DNA of 64,000 bases from contig JBJXEX010000429.1 of assembly GCA_046156195.1 (NCBI GenBank), positions 6,882 through 70,881 of the forward strand. Reading direction: 5' to 3'. Origin of the DNA: Planctomycetaceae bacterium (lineage in GTDB: Bacteria > Planctomycetota > Planctomycetia > Planctomycetales > Planctomycetaceae). This document shows positions 3,001-64,000 of this stretch, one piece after another. The position numbers and the translations under genes were made by a program. Positions within the stretch are counted from its first letter, which is position 1, and each line of letters opens with the position of its first letter. Below the pieces are notes generated by a model that saw only the letters and a program-made list of their open reading frames with translations, was not told where the DNA came from and did no database searches.

Positions 3001-5500
3001 CTGAAGCGGTCCAGCGCGATGCTCACCGAGGTGCTGCCGAGGAAGCTGACCGTGTCGTTGCCCAAGCCGCCGACCAGCGAACCACCTAGCACGGCTCCAT
3101 CCGCGAAGTTGAAGACGTCGTCGCCGCCACCACCGTTGAGGTTCACATTCTGCGAGCCGCTGATGTTGAACGTATCGACGTCGCTGCCACCATTGAGATT
3201 ATCGATCTTCGAGAACGTCAGCGTGGCACCGGCGGCCGTGTAGATTCCCGTCGTGCTCGCCGTCCAATTGGCCGGCGCGGTCGGAAGGCCAACCAGAGTG
3301 TCGTTGCCGTTGCCGCCGACAATCGTCTCGATGCCCCGGAACGTCGGGGAGGACACGCTGTTGAGGGACGGTGTCAACGTCCCATCGAACCCGGACCCAG
3401 AGCTTGCGTTGATGGCGGTCAGAGTAATCGTCTGAGCGGAACTGGCCGACGTGACGGAGAGCGTGTCGTTACCTCCCATGCCATCGACCGTGCCACTCAA
3501 AATGGCTCCGTTATTGAGCTGGAACAGATCGGCCGCCGTGCTACCGACCAAGTCAAACGACTGATTACCGGTGACCAAAAAGTTGTTGCGCGCACCGGCC
3601 GCCGCCGACAATCGCTCGAAGCCAGAGAACTTAAGCGCGACCCCCGACTGGTCGATGTAACGGTATTGAGTCGGATTGCCGAGCACGCCCAACTCCCAGG
3701 TCGCATCGCGTCCCGTGATCCCCGTCAACGTGTCGCTAGGCGCGTTCTTCACCACGATCTCATTGATCCCGGTGTAGCCGCCGGTAATCGCCGTCTCCGA
3801 GCCAGCGTAGCCCGTGGCATCGGGAATTCCGGTCAACAGGAAATTGCGATCCGCCACGATCGCTGACAGGTCCAACTTATCCGAACCTGAGAAGCCATTC
3901 AGCGAACCTCGCAGCGAGCCAGACGCACCGAGTGTGAAGCTGTCGTCAAACGACGCGCTGCCGTTGACCGTCTCAAAGCGAGAGAACGTGAACGCGCCGC
4001 TGGTGTTGGTCAAAGTACCCGCATCCATCGCGTTGATGTTCCAGGCATTCACCTGATTGTGCCCGGTGATCGAGTCACTCGCGCTGTTGCCACCCGTTAC
4101 TGACTCAATGGCCGAGATTCCGAACGTCCGCGTTGGCCCGGTCACCGTCACGATGCTTGTCGAGAAGTTGACGCTCACCGCCGAGTTGTAGGCCGCGAAC
4201 GTCGCAGCATCCGTGGTTCCGCCACCACCGTTGATCGAACCGGACACAACGCGATTGTCCGCGAACTGGAACGTGTCCTGTCCCGCGCCACCAACGAGAT
4301 GCTCGAAACTCGCGAACGGAATCGTTCCCACCGTTCCCGCGTTGTCACTCGTGATATCCCACAACGTGGTCGAGTCCGTGCCGCGCAACGTATCCGCTGC
4401 TGAAGCACTGCCGGTGAAGTTCTCGATGCTGCTGAAGCCATTCGCCAATCCGCCGTTGATCAAATTGGCGGACGAGTTCGACAGATTCACACTGACCGGT
4501 CCCGCGACCCCCGAATAGTTCAATGCGTCCAAGCCACTGCCGCCGCTGACCGTGCCGCTCACCGAACCCCCGGTGAACCGGAACGTGTCGGTGTTGGCGT
4601 TACCCGCCAGGTTTTCCATGCTTTGGAAACTAATCACCCCGGTGATGTTGCCGGTGCCAGCAGCCGGACCAGTCAGATTCCAATCATTGGCCAGAACCAG
4701 ATTCGGTCCCGTGAGTGTGTCGGTCCCGGTGCCACCGATCAGAGTCTCGACCGCCGCGAATGAGAAGGTGCCGTTGGTATTCACCAACGATCCCGTCTGC
4801 GCGGCCGTGACACTCCAGCCGTTGACCAGATTGTGCCCGATCAGAGTGTCGTTTCCGGCTCCACCGACCACACTGTCGATGCCAGTGATCCCGCCGACCG
4901 CACCGCCGAAGACGTTCGTCGCCGAGCCAGTCATCAAGTTGACTGTCGCCGCATTGGCCGCCGTGTACGGCTGATAGCTTAGGCTATCCGAACTGCCGGT
5001 GCCGGCGTCGATGCGACCGGTGACGCCAAACGCGACTCCCGCCACTTCACCCAAACGGAAGGAGTCATTACCCGTCCCCCCCGTCAGGTTCTCGAACGAA
5101 GCGAAGTTCGTCACCAACGTGCCGTTGGTCAGTGTGCCGGTGTCGTTGGCGGTCGTGATCGCGAACGCGTTGACGGCGGAAACTCGCCCAAAGAGCGAAT
5201 CGAACGTCCCCACCGGAGCACTTCCACCATTCACCGTCACCACGACCGTCGCCGCGAAGCCGCCATCCACGCTGGTCAAGCGCAGTGTGTCGGTGCCGTC
5301 GCCCGTGTTGATCGTCAAGCTGCCCCCCGCCACCGGGTTCGTGAACGTCACAATCTCGCTGGTCGGCGAGGCGACTGGTGTTGAAATCACATTCCGTCCC
5401 GCCGTCCCGCTGGCCACAAGCGTCACGTCGTCATTCACACCACTGAAGTTGAACGTGCGGTTCGTCGCCGTCAGCGTGTCGAGGATTGGTTCCAAGCCGA
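1..5500 (-). repeat. RTX / hemolysin-type calcium-binding repeat region (C-terminal part of the giant protein); boundaries approximate
   Basis: Minus-strand translation of 629-541 reads LNGGDGDDQLTGGTGNDTIDGGNDIDTLIE, i.e. GGxGxD nonapeptide-type repeats. Translation near 3330-3250 reads GIETIVGGNGNDTLVGLPTAPANW. The plus-strand track ORFs here (SLPPS/VSLP-rich) are the antisense image of these Gly/Asp repeats. Confidence 0.75.
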
Positions 5501-47699: not shown

Positions 47700-48911
47700 C
47701 TATCGCGGCTTGGGGCGGAAGCGGATGTCGTCGATATCCAAGCGGCCGGTTGCGCCGTTGAGGCCGATGCGAATGATCGCTTCTCGCGCTTCCTTCGGCA
47801 CGGGGATCGTCGTGCCGACCAGCTCCCAGTCGGACTCGCGCAGCCACGGGCCGATGGCTTGCGTGTCGATTTCTTTGCGGAGCTGATCGTAGAAATGCAC
47901 CACGAGCAGCGGCTTGGCAATCGGTTCACTGCCGGGGCGGATGTCTTTGACTCGGACTTGCAGGCTGATCGCGACCGAGCCGATCTTGCGGCCGTCAATC
48001 GCCATGCCTTGTAACGCTTGGGCGAGTCGGCCGGGGTCCGTGTTCTCCATTCGCAGGAAGACTTTGCCGTCCGGCGGTTCGGTGGTCAGCAACTCCGTCA
48101 GTCGTTGGTAATGCCAACTGTCGGGGAGGCAGTCTTTGTTTTCGTCGGTCTCAAAGCTGGCGTTGAGCAGTCGCGGATGGAGCGGATCGGGGAGCGACTC
48201 GCGCAGGTCTTCCGACTTGCCGGTCATCGGCACGAAGAGGGTCGGGATCAGCCGCTTCTGTTCGAGCTTGCCCGCTTTCTTCTCGAATAGATGAAACGCC
48301 TGCTGATACCGCTCACCCAACGGGATCAGCAGCTTGCCCCCTTCTTTGAGTTGCTGGACGAGTGGCACTGGGACGTTTTCCGGCGAGCAGGTCACGATGA
48401 TCTTGTCGAACGGCGCGTGTTCGGGCCAACCGAGGTATCCGTCACCGACTTTGCAGAAGACGTTTTTGTAGTCGAGCTTCTTAAGCCGCCTCTCCGCCTC
48501 TTTGCCGAGCGGTTCGACGATCTCGATGGTGTAGACCTCTTTGACCAGTCCGCTGAGTACCGCCGCTTGATAGCCGCTGCCGGTACCGATTTCCAAAACG
48601 ACGTCGGTCTCTTTCGGCTCGATGGTCTCGGTCATGTAGGCGACGACGAACGGCGGCGAGATCGTCTGCTGATTGCCGATGGGCAACGCCGCGTCGTGAT
48701 AGGCTTCCTTCAGCAAGCCCGCCCGCACGAACTCATGCCGAGGGACGGTTCGCATCGCATCGAGCACTCGCGGGTCTTTGATCCCTTCCCGCTCGATGCA
48801 CTCTTTGACCATGCGATGCCGAGTGTCGCGGAACTTGTCTGAGGATTGTGCGAACAACATTGACGAAAGCAGGCCGAGCAGACTCAGCGAGAGCCATTGG
48901 GAGCGCCACAT
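47700..48911 (-). CDS. pcm: Protein-L-isoaspartate O-methyltransferase with an N-terminal signal peptide and a ~170-aa C-terminal extension
   Basis: MWRSQWLSLSLLGLLSSMLFAQS (signal-like). PIMT core: VPRHEFV, IGNQQTISPPFVVAYM, VLEIGTGSGYQAAVL, GDGYLGWPEHAPFDKIIVT. The extra C-terminal domain ends ...RLDIDDIRFRPKPR. Confidence 0.8.
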   Translation of the reverse strand: MWRSQWLSLSLLGLLSSMLFAQSSDKFRDTRHRMVKECIEREGIKDPRVLDAMRTVPRHEFVRAGLLKEAYHDAALPIGNQQTISPPFVVAYMTETIEPKETDVVLEIGTGSGYQAAVLSGLVKEVYTIEIVEPLGKEAERRLKKLDYKNVFCKVGDGYLGWPEHAPFDKIIVTCSPENVPVPLVQQLKEGGKLLIPLGERYQQAFHLFEKKAGKLEQKRLIPTLFVPMTGKSEDLRESLPDPLHPRLLNASFETDENKDCLPDSWHYQRLTELLTTEPPDGKVFLRMENTDPGRLAQALQGMAIDGRKIGSVAISLQVRVKDIRPGSEPIAKPLLVVHFYDQLRKEIDTQAIGPWLRESDWELVGTTIPVPKEAREAIIRIGLNGATGRLDIDDIRFRPKPR

Positions 48912-50825: not shown

Positions 50826-51200
50826 ATGCCGACCGTGGCCGTTCTAGGAGCCAGTCGTGATCGCAATAAGTACGGCAACAGGTCGGTGCGTGCCCATGCG
50901 CGAGCCGGCTGGCAAGTCTTCCCGATCAATCCGCGAGCGGACGAGATCGAAGGTCATCGAGCGTATGACTCGCTGCGAGACCTCACGATCCGGCCGATCG
51001 ATCGGGTGAGTGTTTATCTGCCACCGGAAATTGGAATCACCCTGTTGGACGAGATCGCCGCCTGTCAGCCACGAGAAGTCTGGCTCAATCCCGGCAGCGA
51101 AAGCGATGAGTTGATCACGGCAGCGGAGCGACTCGGCTTGTCAGTCGTCTGCGCGTGCAGCATCGTTGACGTTGGCGCGTCGAGCCGCGACCGAAACTAG
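50826..51200 (+). CDS. CoA-binding domain protein (YccU/YneT-like)
   Basis: Track ORF 50706..51200. ATG 50826 lies 6 nt after AGGAG. Sequence: [47 protein letters not shown]. Confidence 0.75.
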
Positions 51201-51305: not shown

Positions 51306-53180
51306 ATGATGCGACGTCAGGAGAATGGGTCGGAACGAACGCGCTGGTTCAGGCGGATCGTCGGCAGTGCGCTGCTGATCTTCGTCGTGGCCCATGTTTC
51401 GTTCGCGCAACAGGCTCCCGCGAATAGCTCGACCTCTGGGACGACCGCCACTCCCGCGCCGGCGGGACCGAGGGTTGCCGATCCAAATAAGTTTCCGCCG
51501 ACTCCCACCCCTTTCTTTCGTGGCAATCAACCGATTGAACTGAGTCGCATCGGTGCTCCGCAGGTTGGCTTCTATCTCAATCTGTGGCGATTCGTGCCGT
51601 TTCTCGGTTTGTTCTTCGGCTGGGTCTGGCTGGGGAAATGGGTCAACGAAGACAGCAACTCACTGAAGGTCAACAGCGAGTTCTGGAACTCGGCCCTCTT
51701 CGCGGGGGGCTTCGCGTCGATGCTGACGGGCATGGCGATGGCTCCGTTCGCGCTAGGCTTCTTTCTGTGTCTGGCACTACAAGGTTTGCCTCTGGGCTTA
51801 TATATCCGCGAGCGAAATGCTTGCGTGCCAGAATCGGCTCGGCTGCTGACCCCCAAGCATATCAAGAGCGTCGCATTTCGATTGGCGGCGCGGCTGGGAC
51901 TCTCGATCGGTGGCAAGAAATTCAAACAGCAATTGCTCGGCCCGGACATCGAGTTCGTCGGCAAGACTTCCACCGGTCGTCGCGACACCAGCCGGACATC
52001 GCAGGTCGAGAACTCGCGCGGGTTTCTCGCCGCGAAGGAACTGGTTTACGACGCGCTCATCAAACGTGCGACGGACATTCATCTCGAACCCAAAGAGGAC
52101 GAACTGCAAGTCCGGCTCCGCGTCGATGGTGTGATGTACGCCGTCGAGCCGTTCGATCGAGCACTGGGCGACAACGTCGTCAACATCTTCAAGATCCTCG
52201 CCGCGATGGATATCACCGAGAAACGCAAGTCGCTCGACGGCAGCTTCCGAGCCATCACAGGTGGTCGCGAAATCGACTTCCGCGTCGCCACCCAAGGGAC
52301 GCGCGACGGCGAGAAGATGACGCTCCGTATCCTCGACCAATCCAATTCGGTCAGCACGCTCAACGACCTCGGCTTCCGCAAGCAACTCGAAGAGCAACTC
52401 AAGGAAGTCGTGCATCAGCCGCATGGCCTGCTGTTGGTCTGCGGCCCGACCGGGGCCGGCAAATCGACGACGCTCTATGCCTGCCTCAATGACATCGACT
52501 CTTATCAGCAGAACATTATCACGATCGAAGACCCCGTCGAATATAAGATGGCGAACGTGACACAGATCGAGATCAACACGAAGGCCGGCCAGACATTCGC
52601 GAACTCGCTGCGCAGCGTCCTGCGACAAGACCCGGACATCGTGATGATCGGCGAAATTCGCGACGGCGAAACGGCGAACATCTCCTGCCAAGCGGCCAAC
52701 ACCGGCCACATGGTCTTCTCGACGGTTCACGCCAACGACGCGATCACCGCGCTCTACCGCATGATCGACCTGGGCGTGGACGTGTCGATGCTGTCGAGTT
52801 CCCTGAGCGCGATCCTGGCTCAACGATTGGCTCGGCGACTCTGCTCGGACTGCAAAGAGTCCTACGTCCCCAAGCCGGAGTTCTTGAAAAAGGCCAATCT
52901 CCCCGCCGAAAAGATCGAGAAGCTCTATCGCCCTCCGAAAGAAGGGGAGAACGCCGCCTGCCCCACCTGCGGCGGCATGGGCTATCGCGGCCGAGTCGGC
53001 GTCTACGAGTTGCTCGTCATCACCGATCGCATGCGTGACTTGATCCGCGACAAGGCCGCGCTCTCCGTCTTGAAGGCGGAAGCTCGCAAAGGCGGAATGC
53101 TCTACATGCAGGAAGAGGGGCTCCGACTGGTGGTGAAGGGGATCACGTCGATTGACGAGTTGCTACGCGTGGTGAAATAG
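51306..53180 (+). CDS. GspE/PilB-family (type II/IV secretion) hexameric ATPase with an atypical membrane-embedded N-terminal region
   Basis: The C-terminal two thirds are canonical: TDIHLEP, LRVDGV, SLDGSFR, Walker A GPTGAGKSTTL, IITIEDPVEY, Walker B-region IVMIGEIRD, GHMVFSTVHAND, and tetracysteine CSDC...CPTCGG. The first ~200 aa carry a signal-like segment (IVGSALLIFVVAHVSFA), a Pro/Thr-rich stretch and about 3 hydrophobic helices (FYLNLWRFVPFLGLFFGWVWLGKWV; ALFAGGFASMLTGMAMAPFALGFFLCLALQGLPLGLYI). Confidence 0.85.
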   Translation: MMRRQENGSERTRWFRRIVGSALLIFVVAHVSFAQQAPANSSTSGTTATPAPAGPRVADPNKFPPTPTPFFRGNQPIELSRIGAPQVGFYLNLWRFVPFLGLFFGWVWLGKWVNEDSNSLKVNSEFWNSALFAGGFASMLTGMAMAPFALGFFLCLALQGLPLGLYIRERNACVPESARLLTPKHIKSVAFRLAARLGLSIGGKKFKQQLLGPDIEFVGKTSTGRRDTSRTSQVENSRGFLAAKELVYDALIKRATDIHLEPKEDELQVRLRVDGVMYAVEPFDRALGDNVVNIFKILAAMDITEKRKSLDGSFRAITGGREIDFRVATQGTRDGEKMTLRILDQSNSVSTLNDLGFRKQLEEQLKEVVHQPHGLLLVCGPTGAGKSTTLYACLNDIDSYQQNIITIEDPVEYKMANVTQIEINTKAGQTFANSLRSVLRQDPDIVMIGEIRDGETANISCQAANTGHMVFSTVHANDAITALYRMIDLGVDVSMLSSSLSAILAQRLARRLCSDCKESYVPKPEFLKKANLPAEKIEKLYRPPKEGENAACPTCGGMGYRGRVGVYELLVITDRMRDLIRDKAALSVLKAEARKGGMLYMQEEGLRLVVKGITSIDELLRVVK

Positions 53181-53328
53181 ACTGCGGATGACGAATTGCA
53201 GATTGCAGATTGGACGGCAGAGGAGGCAGCCTCTTGGTCGTCACCTCCTCCGCCGTGTCCGTCAATCTGCCATTTGCCATCTTTTTATCTGCCATCTGCA
53301 AAGTCCTCCCAAAGTTGAAAGCCCAACC

Positions 53329-54015
53329 ATGATTGAAGTCCTACTGCTGCTGATTTTCGCCGGAGTGACCTACTCGGTCGCCGGTGAAGGGGCTTGGGGT
53401 GCCGCGATCACTTGCGTCAGCACGATTCTGGCTGGCTTGATCGCATTGAACTTTTTCGAGCCGATCTGCAACAGCCTGCTCGGATCGAACTATTACTGGC
53501 AGGCGCGGCTCGACCTGATCGTGCTGGTGGGACTGTTCGCCGCCGCCGTGGCCGGTCTGCGAGCGGGGGCGGACTATTTTTCGCCCGTTTATATTGGCGT
53601 GCATCGCATGGTTCACGAAGTCGCGCGCTGGGGCTGCGGCTTGCTGGCTGGCTATGTGACGATGGCGTTTCTGCTGACCGCCTTGCATACCGCGCCGCTG
53701 GGCCGCGAGTTCATCGGCTTCAAACCCGAACGTCCCAATTTCTTCGGCCTGTCTCCTGATCGGCAATGGCTGGGCTTCATGCAATGGACCACCGAGCGAG
53801 TCTTTTGCCAATCTCCCGCGCGGATCTTTGATGGCCCTGTCGTCGCACTGGGCGATCAGAAAGCCGAACCCAAACCGGTTCCGAACACCGTCTGGCCCTC
53901 GTTTCCCATTCGCTACGCCACGCGGCGCGAACGAGGCGCGGGAATGGCCGCCACCGCTACGCAGACTCCCATTCGACCGGTCGCGCCGCCGAAAGCGGGT
54001 GGGCCAGGGTTCTGA
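53329..54015 (+). CDS. Four-TM membrane protein, CvpA-like
   Basis: Track ORF 53188..54015. ATG 53329 begins [45 protein letters not shown]. It has four hydrophobic helices and then a soluble tail. The family assignment is tentative. Confidence 0.55.
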
Positions 54016-54059
54016 GTGTTGGTCTGAAAGGCGTCATTTTTCGAGAGGACTCTTACGCG

Positions 54060-54947
54060 ATGACATCTCGCCTCAGCACCGGCCTTCCGCAACTCGATGA
54101 GATGTTGGGTGGGGGTCTTTTGCCCGGCACACTGACGGTGGTCGTCGGGGCCACCGGTATCGGCAAGACGCAGCTTGGGCTGCAATTCGCTCATGCCGGA
54201 CGTGCGCAAGAAGGCGAATCGGGGATCGTGCTGGACCTCACCACGCGCGGCGATTCGCAGAATCAGGCCGAGTACGCGGAGCGCCTGTTCGATTGGAAAT
54301 TCCGCGAGTTCGCGACCGAAGGGATTTCTGACGTCGGCGACGTGTGGCAGCGCGAGCTTGCTCGATTCGATTATCTGCACCTGTTCCGCCGCAGCGGTCG
54401 CCGAGTCACTCAAGCCGATCTCTCCGTCGAAGAGTGGCAAGAGTGGAACGCCGAACTGGCTCGCAAGCTCGACCGTGCGGTGCAATTCTTCTACGGCAAC
54501 TTTGTGCAGGGAGTCCGCCGCTGCGTGCTCGACGGCGTCGAGCCGACCGAACGAGCCAGCGACAGCTTTCAGTTCCAAGTGATCGACTACGTCTATCACC
54601 AGATTCTGCGGAAGGACGACGACTGGGTCGCGCGCGATCTGTTCCGAGTCCACTTCCGCTCGCAAGCCGCCAACGTCGCCGCGCATCGCTATGACCATCG
54701 GGGCGTCGGCTGCGTGTTGCTTTACACGTCGCACGAAAACTTGCTCGACGACTTACTCTCCCGGCCGATTGAAAGTGGCGACGCGCTCTCGAACGCAAAC
54801 ACGATCATCCTGATGGGCAAGGTTCGCGACGGACTGCGCGTCCGCCGCGCTTTGCACATCGCCAAGCATCGCGGCAGCGCGTGCGATGACCGCATCGTGC
54901 CGTTTGAAATCACACAGCGAGGTCTCGTGATCGAACAGACTGCTTGA
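54060..54947 (+). CDS. Single-domain KaiC-like / RecA-superfamily ATPase
   Basis: [40 protein letters not shown] (KaiC/RadA-type N-terminus with Walker A). Candidate Walker B at [10 protein letters not shown]. ...[37 protein letters not shown] is typical of the KaiC-like C-terminal end. Confidence 0.75.
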
Positions 54948-55012
54948 GAACCCTCTCCCAGCGACCTACCATTCGACCGACGCACGCGAGACCACTCTCC
55001 GAGGGAGCTGCC

Positions 55013-55441
55013 ATGACGGCCGGTAAAAAGATCTTGCTGATCGAAGATGATCGGGACATCGCCACAACCTTGATGAAGGTGCTCGAAGGTGCCGACTATC
55101 TTGTGCAATGGGCTCAGAACGGTCTCGAAGGGCGACGCTTGGCCGAGACCATTTCGCCGGAACTCGTCATCACCGACATGATGATGCCCAAGATGGGGGG
55201 GTTCCCCGTTCTCGAATTCCTCAAAGGGATGGATCACCCGCCCAAGGTCATCATGATCACGGCCAACGAAGGGGGCCGGCACAAAGCCTATGCCGAGATG
55301 CTCGGCGTCGATGATTACCTCCGCAAACCGTTCGCGATGGAAGTGCTGCTGGAGGCCGTCGAGCGTTCGATCGGCCCCGCCCTTTCGCCCGAAACATCCG
55401 GTTCAGAGAAACTCCGCCGAGCGATCAAGAAGAAAACATGA
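55013..55441 (+). CDS. Stand-alone CheY-like response-regulator receiver domain
   Basis: Track ORF 54944..55441. ATG 55013 follows GAGGGAG. Sequence: [16 protein letters not shown]...[21 protein letters not shown]...VIMITA...DDYLRKPF. Confidence 0.85.
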
Positions 55442-60906: not shown

Positions 60907-61051
60907 GTTGTGCGGTGCTCCCAGGTTGCCCCAGCCGGCCTGATGACGCTCGGTCCCACGCACTCACACGAACGATGCGGCTGGTGCCTTTGCGAAGAGT
61001 GACATGTTGCCACTTTTCGAGTTCTCAGTCATCCACGTCAGGAGCGAAGTC

Positions 61052-64000
61052 ATGTTGACTCAAAATTGGTCGAACGTCATTCAGAATTGGTTTTCCCAAG
61101 GAACTCGAACGAGAGCAACGTCGCGGAATGCCGATCGTCGCCGTCAGCGACAGACCCTTCGCCAAATTTCCATTGAGAGTTTGGAAGCACGGATTCTGCC
61201 CGCCACCATCATTGTCACCGGCAACGGAGATGGAACGGATGGATTCGTCACGCTGCGCGAGGCGGTCACTTCGATCAACGCGGGAATCGACACTTCCGAC
61301 GTGACATCCGTCGGGGCGTATGGCGTCAACGACACGATCAATTTCAACATTTCCGGTGCGGGCCTGCAGACAATCTCGCTGCTGTCGTCTCTGCCGACGC
61401 TCATGAAACCAGTGGTCATCAACGGCTACACCCAATCGGACGCCAGCCAAAACACGCTGGTCGATACGGACAACGCGGTCCTGCGGATCGAGTTGGATGG
61501 CACCAGTGCGGGGGGTGGAACGAACGGGTTGGTGCTCGGTACGGGGTCGAGCGGTTCCAGTGTCAGCGGGTTGGTGATCAATCGTTTTTCCGGGTCGGGA
61601 ATCCGGGTGCTGTCTGACGGCAACACGATCACCGGCAACTTCATCGGGACCGGTGGCACGGGCAATACCGTTGCGAGCGCGACCAGTGGTTTCGGGATCG
61701 AGATCGACGGGCACTTCCGCAATACGATTGGTGGCACAACTCCGGCGTCGAGAAATGTCATCGGGGGGAATTCCGACGGCATCAACCTTAACACGGGTTC
61801 TCAGAACAATGTGATTCAAGGGAACTTCATCGGCGTCGGCGCGGATGGCGCGACGGCGGTGGGAAACCGATTACACGGCGTGGCTCTGCGAGGGAACGGC
61901 GGACTGGGAGTTCAAGACAACTCGATCGGCGGCACGTTGGCGGGAGCGGGCAATACGATCGCGAACAACGGTTCCGCCGGAGTGGCCGTGTTCGGCGATC
62001 CGTTGTCCATTCGTCAGAACACCGGCAATGCCATTCTTGGCAACTCGATCTTCAACAACGGACTCAGCAGTCCCGCGACGATTCCGGGAATCGATCTTGT
62101 CGGGACCGGTTCCTATCCGACGGATGACGGCGTCACCGCCAACGACTCTGGATTGATGCCCGCTGACCCTGATGATGCCGACAGCGGCCCCAACCTCTTG
62201 CAGAATTTCCCCGTGCTGACATCCGCCACGAGCGGAATGCTCGGCACGACGATCATGGGGACGCTCAACAGCAGCACTCAAACAACGTACCGGATCGAGT
62301 TCTTCGCCAGTCCCACCGTCAGCGCGACTGGTTTCGGTGAAGGTCAGAAGTTCCTCGGCTTCACGAACGTGACGACCGACAACAACGGCAATGCGAACAT
62401 CAGCTTCATCACGACCTTGGCGAACACGGTGCCGAGCGGCCAGTTCGTCACGGCGACCGCGACGTCCGGAGGAACTTCCACGGGCACCACACCCACAGGC
62501 GCGGCGGCCATCTTGGGGACGGCGGCGAACTTCGCGATCTTGGCCGGTTCGGCGATCACGATCACCGGCCCGACCAACCTCTTGGGAGATGTCGGCATCA
62601 GCCCAGGATCGGCACTCGATCCCGCCTCGTTCACGACGACGGGCACGGTCCATATCACCGATGCGGTCGCGCTGCAGGCGAAGATTGATCTCGCCACGGC
62701 TTACGATTCCCTCCTCCCCGCACAACTGCCGTTCACGACCGATTTGACCGGCACGGATCTGGGTGCGCTTTTGCAGCCGCTTACGCCGGGGGTCTATCAC
62801 TTCGACACGTCGGCGCAGTTGACGGGGACACTCAAGCTCGACACCCAGGGCGATCCTCATGCGCGTTTCGTGTTTCAGATCGGAAGCACGCTCATCACCG
62901 CCGTCGGTTCGGAAGTGGTGTTCGTGCTCGGTGGATCGTCTGACAATGTCCTCTGGCAGGTCGGCAGCTCCGCGACGATCGGGGTCGGCACGGACTTCGT
63001 TGGAAACATTCTCGCGCTGACGAGCATCACCTTGCAGAACGGTGCGACGCTGGCGAGCGGCCGAGCCTTGGCGCGAAATGGAGCCGTGACGATGAACACG
63101 ATCGTCGTCGATTCCACGATCCCGCCGCAGAACAACACGTCGGAGTTCTCTGCTCCTCAGCAGGTTCCCAATCTGACTCCCACGACGCTGACGATCGGGA
63201 ATCAGACGGTGACGGAAGGGGGCAATTTGATGTTCACGGTCACTCTGTCGGCGGCCGTGCTGGGCGGAGTGACGGTGGATTTCGCGACGACCGACGGAAC
63301 GGCCAAAGATGGCGTCGGCGAGAGCGAAACGGACTACACGGCCGCGAGCGGGACATTGACGTTCCTGGGAATGGCGGGCGAGACGAAGACCATCACAGTG
63401 CTCACCGCGACGGACACGAAGGTCGAGCTGAATGAGACGCTGAGCGTCTCGTTGAGCAACGTCTCAACGGGCACCGTGACCACGGTCGGAAGTCCCGCGA
63501 CGGGGACGATCACCAACAACGACAGCGCGACGATCTCGATCGCCGATGCCACGGCCACCGAGGGAGGCAACTTGGTCTTCGCCGTCACGTTGACCAATCC
63601 GGTTGATGTCAACACGGTCATCACGTTTTCGACGTTCGATGGCTCGGCCACCACGGTCGACAACGACTACACCAGCCAGACCGCTCAGACGCTGACGATC
63701 GTTGCCGGTCAGACCAACGGCATGATCACGGTCGCGACCTTCGCCGATGCCAATATCGAGTTGGCCGAAACGATGACGGTCGTGCTCGCGAACATCAGCG
63801 CTAGTGGTCGGAATGTGACATTCCTCGACGACACCGGCATCGGGACGATCAACCCGCCGGGCAATTTCAGTTCGCCAGTCATCACGTCAGACTCGACGGC
63901 GAGCGTGGCAGAGAACTCCAGCATCGCGACGGTGGTGCTGGACGTGAACGCGACGGATGCCGACGTCCCGGCTCAGACATTGAGCTTCGCTTTGTCTGGC
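61052..64000 (+). CDS. Second giant secreted protein, truncated at its 3' end by the window edge (first 983 codons): ESLEAR leader, CSLREA-type parallel beta-helix, DUF3494 ice-binding-like domain, 2x Calx-beta, cadherin-like start
   Basis: Not in the track (no stop inside the window). ATG 61052 lies 7 nt after GGAG. Hand translation: MLTQNWSNVIQNWFSQGTRTRATSRNADRRRQRQTLRQISIESLEARILPATIIVTGNGDG...; I met no stop through 64000. Confidence 0.85.
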   Translation, partial: MLTQNWSNVIQNWFSQGTRTRATSRNADRRRQRQTLRQISIESLEARILPATIIVTGNGDGTDGFVTLREAVTSINAGIDTSDVTSVGAYGVNDTINFNISGAGLQTISLLSSLPTLMKPVVINGYTQSDASQNTLVDTDNAVLRIELDGTSAGGGTNGLVLGTGSSGSSVSGLVINRFSGSGIRVLSDGNTITGNFIGTGGTGNTVASATSGFGIEIDGHFRNTIGGTTPASRNVIGGNSDGINLNTGSQNNVIQGNFIGVGADGATAVGNRLHGVALRGNGGLGVQDNSIGGTLAGAGNTIANNGSAGVAVFGDPLSIRQNTGNAILGNSIFNNGLSSPATIPGIDLVGTGSYPTDDGVTANDSGLMPADPDDADSGPNLLQNFPVLTSATSGMLGTTIMGTLNSSTQTTYRIEFFASPTVSATGFGEGQKFLGFTNVTTDNNGNANISFITTLANTVPSGQFVTATATSGGTSTGTTPTGAAAILGTAANFAILAGSAITITGPTNLLGDVGISPGSALDPASFTTTGTVHITDAVALQAKIDLATAYDSLLPAQLPFTTDLTGTDLGALLQPLTPGVYHFDTSAQLTGTLKLDTQGDPHARFVFQIGSTLITAVGSEVVFVLGGSSDNVLWQVGSSATIGVGTDFVGNILALTSITLQNGATLASGRALARNGAVTMNTIVVDSTIPPQNNTSEFSAPQQVPNLTPTTLTIGNQTVTEGGNLMFTVTLSAAVLGGVTVDFATTDGTAKDGVGESETDYTAASGTLTFLGMAGETKTITVLTATDTKVELNETLSVSLSNVSTGTVTTVGSPATGTITNNDSATISIADATATEGGNLVFAVTLTNPVDVNTVITFSTFDGSATTVDNDYTSQTAQTLTIVAGQTNGMITVATFADANIELAETMTVVLANISASGRNVTFLDDTGIGTINPPGNFSSPVITSDSTASVAENSSIATVVLDVNATDADVPAQTLSFALSG
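61190..62060 (+). other. CSLREA-type motif plus parallel beta-helix repeats
   Basis: VTLREAVTSINAG (motif at 61247-61267), then rungs such as VSGLVINRFSGSGIRVLSDGNTITGNFIG, NVIGGNSDGINLNTGSQNNVIQGNFIG, NTIANNGSAGVAVFGD and AILGNSIFNN. Confidence 0.65.
62501..63109 (+). other. DUF3494 / ice-binding-like (IBP type 1) domain
   Basis: AAAILGTAANFAILAGSAITITGPTNLLGDVGISPGSAL...LTPGVYHFDTSAQLTGTLKLDTQGDPHARFVFQIGSTLITAVGSEVVFVLGGSSDNVLWQVGSSATIGVGTDFVGNILALTSITLQNGATLASGRALARNGAVTMNTIVV. As I recall the DUF3494 consensus (LGSA.NFAVLAGS...GD.GVSPG...TPGVY...LTLDAQGD..AVFIFQ.GS.L.T...NVFWQVGSSATLG...F.GNILA..SIT...GA...GR.LA..GAVTL..N.I), this matches along its whole length. Confidence 0.8.
63188..63853 (+). 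repeat. Two tandem Calx-beta domains
   Basis: LTIGNQTVTEGGNLMFTVTLSAAV..VTVDFATTDGTAKDG..DYTAASGTLTFLGMAGETKTITVLTATDTKVELNETLSVSLSNV...GTITNND, and ISIADATATEGGNLVFAVTLTNPV..ITFSTFDGSATTVDNDYTSQTAQTLTIVAGQTNGMITVATFADANIELAETMTVVLANI...GIGTIN. Confidence 0.8.
63876..64000 (+). other. Start of a cadherin-like domain
   Basis: PVITSDSTASVAENSSIATVVLDVNATDADVPAQTLSFALSG: V.EN....T.V..V.A.D.D pattern. Confidence 0.5.

Follow-up and report, generated by a model that had tools for sequence, protein, structure and literature searches.

Secretion ATPases of the PilB/GspE class are thought to be soluble motors, which are recruited to the membrane by GspL or PilM and act on GspF/PilC. In the FtsK/SpoIIIE and VirD4-type coupling proteins, N-terminal transmembrane (TM) segments and a low-complexity or connector region are combined with a cytoplasmic hexameric P-loop motor. 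Here we describe a planctomycete locus in which an ATPase of the former class resembles the latter proteins, by analogy only, in carrying its own predicted TM domain, and in which its gene is coupled to one for a CvpA-family membrane protein. The locus lies in a stretch of 64,000 nucleotides (hereafter the window) from a Planctomycetaceae bacterium (assembly GCA_046156195.1, contig JBJXEX010000429.1, positions 6,882 to 70,881 of the forward strand), where four genes follow one another:

51306..53180, + strand: PilB/GspE-class ATPase (624 residues), core component of the module
53329..54015, + strand: divergent CvpA-family protein with four TM helices (228 residues), core component of the module
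54060..54947, + strand: KaiC/RecA-like P-loop protein (295 residues), a lineage-specific neighbor and not a conserved partner
55013..55441, + strand: stand-alone CheY-like receiver (142 residues), a lineage-specific neighbor

The gaps between these genes are 148, 44, and 65 bp, and public contigs with identical proteins carry the same four gene calls. A preliminary description of the locus, made from the letters alone, had given these four co-directional open reading frames (ORFs) and short gaps as they are, and had read them as possibly an undescribed, phospho-regulated membrane machine of four parts. The novelty in that reading stands, in that our literature search found no description of a membrane-integrated GspE/PilB protein, of a pairing of CvpA with an ATPase, or of this arrangement in work on planctomycete type IV pili (T4P); however, the conserved unit comprises only the ATPase and the CvpA-like protein.

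The evidence for this unit comes from two scans with different anchors. In the scan anchored on the CvpA-like protein, a relative is encoded by 237 GTDB species genomes, and in 78 of the best 80 loci, which were those analyzed, the ATPase gene lies immediately upstream, with its product at 57–93% identity, mostly including the N-terminus (one of the two exceptions is truncated by a contig end). The second scan, of metagenomes, was anchored on the TM domain of the ATPase with a closer alignment as the query and recovered 34 loci, 28 of them evaluable by virtue of enough downstream sequence; the CvpA-like gene follows the ATPase gene in 26 of the 28, and in one of the remaining loci (L109) its place is taken by an ORF of 281 residues (3567–4412, minus strand), which was assigned as transposase-like by reading the sequence. 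Across 106 loci the gap between the two genes has a median of 79 bp and measures 250 bp or less in 103, and in some lineages their stop and start codons overlap. An all-against-all clustering of the neighboring ORFs left the ATPase and CvpA-like families as the only ones common to close and distant loci. The pairing reaches as far as three loci (L089, L090, and L091) whose ATPases are 28–31% identical to that of the window, all three with a CvpA-like gene directly downstream; the partner matches the Pfam model PF02674 in L089 (E=2e-8) and L090 (E=3e-11), and in L091 at E=1.4e-4 and 22.3 bits, which is below the cut-off of 29.3. The conserved unit is a membrane-anchored PilB-class ATPase together with a CvpA-family protein, co-inherited across Planctomycetota with short gaps, and as a two-gene module it is planctomycete-wide and apparently undescribed.

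In the window an in-frame ATG at 53188 would lengthen the CvpA-like ORF by 47 residues (region 53188–53328). All 15 of the 15 aligned homologs, however, begin no more than four residues from the Met at 53329 and the public gene calls agree with this start, so that the gap of 148 bp after the ATPase gene is real.

The ATPase itself is divisible into five segments:

51306..51407, + strand: signal-peptide-like segment (residues 1–34) with a basic n-region, a hydrophobic core, and 'SFA-QQ', putatively cleaved
51408..51581, + strand: low-complexity Pro/Thr/Ala linker (residues 35–92) with PPxPxxFxRG and GFY motifs, probably periplasmic
51582..51824, + strand: three-helix TM domain (residues 93–173) with conserved W112, D116, W127, N128, P162, Y166, R170, and N171
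51825..52034, + strand: cytoplasmic connector (residues 174–243) with conserved VLTPxH and GPDIxFxGK motifs
52035..53180, + strand: PilB/GspE N2 and C-terminal ATPase core (residues 244–624) with Walker A GPTGAGKST (K386), Asp box, Walker B, His box, and CxxC...CxxC

The catalytic part had been called a canonical GspE/PilB-type traffic ATPase, and its place in this class is confirmed. PF00437 (T2SSE) matches residues 244–621 with E=3e-114; the motifs GPTGAGKST, ITIEDPVE, DPDIVMIGEIRD, and TGHMVFSTVHAND provide the Walker A, Asp box, Walker B, and His box that this class requires; and a four-cysteine site (CSDC...CPTC), conserved in the subfamily, is the putative counterpart of the zinc site of the GspE/PilB subgroup. 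By Foldseek, the core matches solved PilB, PilF, and GspE structures at template modeling scores of 0.91–0.94 and 38–41% identity. Against the NCBIfam equivalogs it obtains 442 bits on GspE (TIGR02533, cut-off 630) and 419 bits on PilB (TIGR02538, cut-off 676), and it reaches neither cut-off because only its C-terminal 380 residues align, the alignment being confined to residues 243–623. The score on the PilT model (193 bits against a cut-off of 319) marks it as PilB/GspE-like and not PilT-like, and that on the ArlI/FlaI model is 61 bits (cut-off 550). In the subfamily to which the window's protein belongs every catalytic residue is kept and strongly conserved.

In place of the usual N-terminal domains of this class, the preliminary description had seen a signal-like segment, a Pro/Thr-rich stretch, and about three TM helices, an architecture now supported both by a structural model and by the conservation among orthologs. 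From 50 family members, AlphaFold2 (AF2) gave a model with a mean predicted local distance difference test score (pLDDT) of 87.8, which shows a signal-peptide helix (10–32), a disordered stretch (34–89, pLDDT <50), three TM helices (93–120, 124–144, and 148–173, pLDDT 86–97), short amphipathic helices in the connector (183–196 and 204–211), and then the PilB-like core. All 65 of the 65 locus orthologs start with a basic and then a hydrophobic segment ending in A-Q, which is succeeded by a Pro/Ala/Thr-rich stretch, PPxPxxFxRG, GFY, and the conserved TM motifs. Within the linker P64, P67, R72, and G73 are near-invariant and G88 and Y90 invariant; the eight conserved residues listed above for the TM helices are likewise invariant or nearly so, and the connector has an invariant T182 and near-invariant H185 and G212. 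A search with residues 1–250 over 1.84 billion proteins returned 287 representative clusters, whose full-length members measure 560–680 residues. We also considered whether the hydrophobic N-terminus is an artifact of a wrong start or of a fused upstream ORF, and rejected this on the strength of the signal, linker, and TM motifs kept in the 65 orthologs and of the confident AF2 model. A simple hydropathy profile peaks only at the signal segment (15–36) and at the TM2/TM3 hairpin and leaves TM1 undetected; that the aromatic-rich TM1 is a true TM helix is suggested by the AF2 model and by topological necessity, since an odd number of passes after the signal peptide would be needed to place the ATPase in the cytoplasm. 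A PDB sequence search with a profile of the TM domain gave no meaningful relative of solved structure, and an origin of this domain as a diverged CvpA was rejected (profile–profile probability of 0.2% against the CvpA-like family).

The assignment of the second protein to the CvpA/Colicin_V family is by transitive homology, because it is the relatives of the window's protein, and not that protein, that pass PF02674. The window's version has no Pfam or NCBIfam match, PF02674 being absent even at E<=1, whereas relatives at 50–55% identity score 30–32 bits on this model (Colicin_V, cut-off 29.3), and the partner genes of distant ATPases up to 44 bits across the whole TM region. An identical protein from a Planctomycetaceae metagenome-assembled genome (MAG) is named 'CvpA family' by NCBI, and homologs number more than 1000. 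The four TM helices reported in the preliminary description are recovered in the AF2 model (pLDDT 65.8) at 2–18, 21–50, 55–84, and 93–121, in agreement with the hydropathy peaks. They are followed by a poorly modeled C-terminal tail of about 100 residues, in which the motifs PDRQWLGF and SFPIRYAxRR, as well as a terminal Phe, are invariant; this Phe sits after a variable Gly/Pro-rich stretch and is unusual for an inner-membrane protein. A cytoplasmic location of the tail is favored by its composition (a median of 12.5 Lys+Arg). Neither a PDB sequence search with the profile of the CvpA-like family (nothing meaningful) nor a Foldseek search with its model (nothing at E<=0.001) points to a solved relative. 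Two tandem CvpA-like paralogs follow the ATPase gene in 20 of the 106 loci; in one such pair (L028, 9339–9905 and 10001–10699) the first copy is shorter (188 residues) and has no Pfam match.

The remaining two genes of the run have a different distribution. The single-domain KaiC-like ATPase and the CheY-like receiver had been recognized correctly in the preliminary description. The former matches PF06745 (E=1e-18) with invariant Walker A (GATGIGKT) and Walker B (VLDG) motifs, the Asp of the latter being followed by Gly. It aligns with KaiC chains at E=1e-23, the catalytic Glu-Glu being matched by Thr-Thr, but it is not KaiC proper: it has a single domain in 295 residues, scores 55 bits against a cut-off of 408, and aligns over only about 60 N-terminal and 45 C-terminal residues. 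The receiver matches PF00072 over its full length (E=4e-23), with the predicted acidic pocket, acceptor Asp, Thr, and Lys in 'IEDD', 'VITDMMMP', 'MITAN', and 'LRKPF'. A KaiC-like gene downstream of the pair is confined to 17 genome and 4 metagenome loci, in all of which ATPase identity is 81% or more. The receiver was found in the cluster analysis in 12 close and 0 distant loci, and is missing even from part of the close clade. Conserved order thus declines in tiers of ATPase identity:

91–93%: the entire run from the PCMT gene to the AMP-binding gene in order
82–85%: only CoA-binding, ATPase, CvpA, KaiC, and receiver genes in order
81–92% (CvpA-like protein 68–70%): ATPase, CvpA, and KaiC genes in order, the receiver in a minority
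71% or less: only ATPase and CvpA genes in order

In none of the roughly 80 loci of the last tier does the KaiC-like or the receiver gene occur within 7–10 kb. Of the conservation of the four-gene neighborhood across Planctomycetota, which the preliminary description had put forward as a check, the ATPase–CvpA pair is therefore what is kept, whereas the order with the KaiC-like and receiver genes is not conserved below 81% ATPase identity; the latter two are recent neighbors within one freshwater Planctomycetaceae clade. The KaiC-like family is large and unusually conserved in its own right (more than 4000 matches, the top 120 all at least 64% identical). In seven loci with orthologs at 65–72% identity, a D-serine-dehydratase-like gene lies directly upstream in six, and in all seven the vicinity lacks the ATPase, CvpA-like, and receiver genes; the context elsewhere is often an SSF transporter, Amidohydro_2, D-Ser-dehydratase-like, and KaiC-like gene on one strand (L127, 5907–10882; also L006, L007, L008, L126, and L128). 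The same dehydratase-like gene stands divergently upstream of the anchored ATPase in 10 distant loci (e.g., L028, 5997–7112), and its occurrence near both may be a relic of two anciently neighboring operons.

The module has one recurrent neighbor of T4P type, namely the PilT family. In about 11 loci the gene immediately upstream of the anchored ATPase encodes a PilT-family ATPase (TIGR01420, 389–394 bits; cut-off 319). A HisF-like gene comes before it in most cases (10 loci altogether), and in L089 and L090 the stop codon of the PilT-family gene overlaps the start of the anchored protein. In about 8 further loci, of Gimesia type, the PilT-family gene is found within 10 kb on the other strand. 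The window of 64 kb contains no PilT, HisF, or dehydratase-like gene. Other genes of the type II secretion system (T2SS) or of T4P are absent from the conserved neighbors of the distant loci, save for a DUF1559/N_methyl family in three loci, one of whose members, a pseudopilin-like gene, is directly upstream in L088. Of the standard T2SS/T4P partners that, according to the preliminary description, might turn out to be the conserved neighbors elsewhere, only the PilT family recurs. Around the window's cluster, no GspF, pilin, secretin, or prepilin peptidase gene is found among the neighbors scanned within ±12 kb, in line with the earlier observation that the first three are lacking.

Taken as a whole, we consider it probable, if far from assured, that the self-anchored PilB/GspE-class ATPase and the CvpA-family 4-TM protein form a two-gene functional unit with the following mechanism. 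The ATPase would hexamerize like PilB, thereby bringing 18 TM helices into the inner membrane, and would form a complex there with the CvpA-like protein, in which the basic, motif-rich tail of the partner might dock onto conserved polar and aromatic residues that lie on the cytoplasmic side of the ATPase's TM domain. ATP-driven domain motions would be passed directly to the membrane assembly, the fused TM domain replacing the GspL/PilM anchor and, with the CvpA-like protein, perhaps the GspF/PilC platform too. The recurrence of a PilT-family gene beside the module suggests that it serves not simple transport but a dynamic process like that of type IV filaments. The more far-reaching proposal, that a membrane-integrated PilB-like hexamer, joined by the CvpA-family protein and in many lineages by PilT, constitutes a self-contained inner-membrane motor needing no GspF/PilC, is in our estimation rather improbable. 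Several observations weigh against the favored picture. One metagenome locus (L121) is a real exception, with no CvpA-like gene downstream of the ATPase, and the annotated neighbors of the module include no pilin, platform, or secretin gene. The last segment of Escherichia coli CvpA is predicted to be periplasmic (bioRxiv 10.1101/2020.09.25.314492); were the tail of the present family likewise periplasmic, it would meet the periplasmic linker of the ATPase and not its cytoplasmic face. In many distant members of the ATPase family the catalytic residues are incomplete, the Walker A lysine being among those lost (e.g., AVPAGGLST and SLPGNGLST), so that a motor role is not general for the whole family. 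Lastly, the adjacency of the KaiC-like gene in the close clade persists beyond the loss of synteny of the flanking housekeeping genes, which leaves room for a lineage-specific functional link.

This last point, together with the co-directional arrangement and gaps of 44–148 bp, is what speaks for the four proteins being one phospho-regulated membrane machine, as first proposed, with the KaiC-like protein partnering the ATPase as ArlH partners ArlI and the receiver serving as input: the order ATPase–CvpA–KaiC persists through three tiers of identity within the close clade and outlives the turnover of the flanking genes, the KaiC-like protein is like ArlH in its single RecA domain, Walker A, and Walker B Asp without a following Glu (PMC5019145), and PH0186 and PH0284 are among its nearest solved relatives. 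Yet it obtains 26 bits against 215 on the ArlH model (NF052589) and 16 against 194 on FlaH (PRK06067), while archaeal KaiC-domain models score it higher at 47–53 bits, still under their cut-offs; judged by these profiles it is not an ArlH orthologue, nor, as had been asked, is it closer to the ArlH/FlaH type than to the KaiC type. The low ArlI/FlaI score of the ATPase, the lack of an ArlJ-like platform gene, the loss of both additional genes at or below 71% ATPase identity, the patchy presence of the receiver within the close clade, and the other conserved context of the KaiC-like orthologs, after the dehydratase-like gene, all tell against the machine of four, which we regard as very unlikely. 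A different possibility is that the ATPase is a membrane-tethered PilB/GspE paralog powering a conventional T4P or a T2SS-like apparatus whose components (GspF/PilC, DUF1559 pseudopilins, and PilT) are encoded at other loci, its TM domain replacing docking by GspL/PilM and the CvpA-like protein being an accessory. The identity of its core to PilB/GspE, the PilT-family gene as the sole recurrent T4P-type neighbor, and the DUF1559/N_methyl genes are all compatible with this, as is the precedent of Planctopirus limnophila, which has ten 'T2SS protein E' genes, 68 DUF1559 paralogs, and platform genes at other loci (PMC10632474). The very number of DUF1559 genes makes it plausible, however, that the three adjacencies are due to chance; no GspF/PilC was seen in the flanks of the window, among the families recurring in several distant loci, or among the called genes of L001 and L089–L091 (most of the approximately 110 loci having been screened for the query proteins only); and this reading does not account for the CvpA-like gene accompanying the ATPase almost everywhere. 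We hold this alternative to be possible but on balance unlikely. The degenerate ATPases invite a further alternative, in which the pair is a signaling or envelope-maintenance device with the CvpA-family protein acting in envelope stress, a role that has been proposed for E. coli CvpA, and the ATPase domain as a nucleotide-dependent switch. Many members without the Walker A Lys, including those of L089 (8001–9830) and L090 (4836–6674), still have their TM domain and their CvpA partner, a genetic link connects E. coli CvpA with the sigma-E response (bioRxiv 10.1101/2020.09.25.314492), and two-component or sigma-54 regulators adjoin the module in some loci, as the receiver does in the window. These nearby regulators are not conserved, though, the window's subfamily keeps its full catalytic apparatus, and in L089 and L090 translational coupling joins the degenerate ATPase to an intact PilT-family one, in keeping with a motor in which one type of subunit is inactive; a switch of this kind thus appears quite improbable to us.

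The genes surrounding the cluster in the window include the following, which lies upstream of the ATPase gene:

50826..51200, + strand: CoA_binding_2 gene (PF13380), outside the module

Its adjacency to the ATPase gene is retained in the nearest relatives only. Further upstream, on the opposite strand, is an S1-domain gene, and downstream of the receiver is a convergent PD40/TolB-like gene; the flanks of ±12 kb contain genes for methyltransferases, an ABC-F protein, PCMT, DUF1501, an AMP-binding enzyme, and MpsC. A scan for promoters and terminators gave counts close to the expectation from shuffled sequence and is uninformative on the operon structure. A defense system was also considered and rejected, PADLOC giving no match save a weak one to the receiver. 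A long PCMT-domain protein (403–407 residues) is encoded a few kb away from the module in the window (47700–48911, minus strand) and likewise in the very distant L090 (10151–11374), which may reflect deep residual synteny or chance. At the start of the window (1–23678, minus strand) a giant gene with a single unbroken ORF of at least 7892 residues and a third-position GC content of 0.77 runs off the edge, and in L089 a giant gene of 8385 residues ends 7.5 kb upstream of the module; at the other end of the window (61004–64000, plus strand) a protein of at least 998 residues with Ice_binding and Calx-beta domains runs off the edge. MAG records labeled 'Candidatus Kuenenia stuttgartiensis' (L014, L015, and L019) and 'Dehalococcoidia' (L021) carry the locus at 69–87% identity to the window's cluster, and these labels look wrong. 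In P. limnophila, Plim_0082 ('T2SS protein E', non-essential) and Plim_0083 (hypothetical) are a candidate for the orthologous pair and were left out of the evidence.

The architecture of the module and its choice of partner are unexpected and widely conserved, while its function is something that we infer. If the motor is itself integral to the membrane and linked to a CvpA-family protein, this class of ATPases would have a further route of coupling to the membrane, and the pair would offer a testable partner for CvpA, which is present in many phyla and whose function has been described as unknown. If the motor were indeed free of a platform, it would represent a new branch of the type-IV-filament superfamily, with a CvpA-family protein as the membrane transducer, and would provide a first mechanistic handle on this widespread family. 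The module is also an added candidate for the poorly understood envelope machinery of Planctomycetes, and the PilT-coupled branch without the Walker A lysine raises the question of assemblies that mix active and inactive motors.

Compared with the FtsK/SpoIIIE and VirD4-type proteins, the ATPase of the window belongs to another family and its linker, probably periplasmic, precedes the TM domain; no homology is expected. PilT/PilU differ in their relation to the module: a true PilT-family gene recurs upstream of the anchored ATPase elsewhere, translationally coupled to it in L089 and L090, and is not part of the window. With ArlI–ArlH the locus shares a secretion-superfamily ATPase near a single-domain RecA/KaiC-like protein without the Walker B Glu (PMC5019145), but here the adjacency is confined to one clade, the scores stay under the cut-offs of the ArlH and ArlI models, ArlJ and archaellin are lacking, and the hosts are bacteria. 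The likeness to GspE/PilB extends over the same N2 domain and C-terminal core with PF00437, the catalytic boxes, and the putative tetracysteine zinc site; in place of the N1/MshEN/GSPII domains, however, the ATPase starts with a signal peptide, which is followed by a linker and a conserved 3-TM domain, and in place of GspF/PilC, GspL/PilM, and a pilin, none of which is among the annotated neighbors of the module, its constant partner is a CvpA-family protein. This partner is like CvpA (PF02674) in being a 4-TM inner-membrane protein whose relatives pass the Pfam model over the TM region. It differs in that the window's version falls below Pfam detection and is extended at its C-terminus by a tail of about 100 residues with invariant motifs and an invariant terminal Phe, and in that its family is genetically coupled to a PilB-like ATPase and has undergone tandem duplication in 20 loci.

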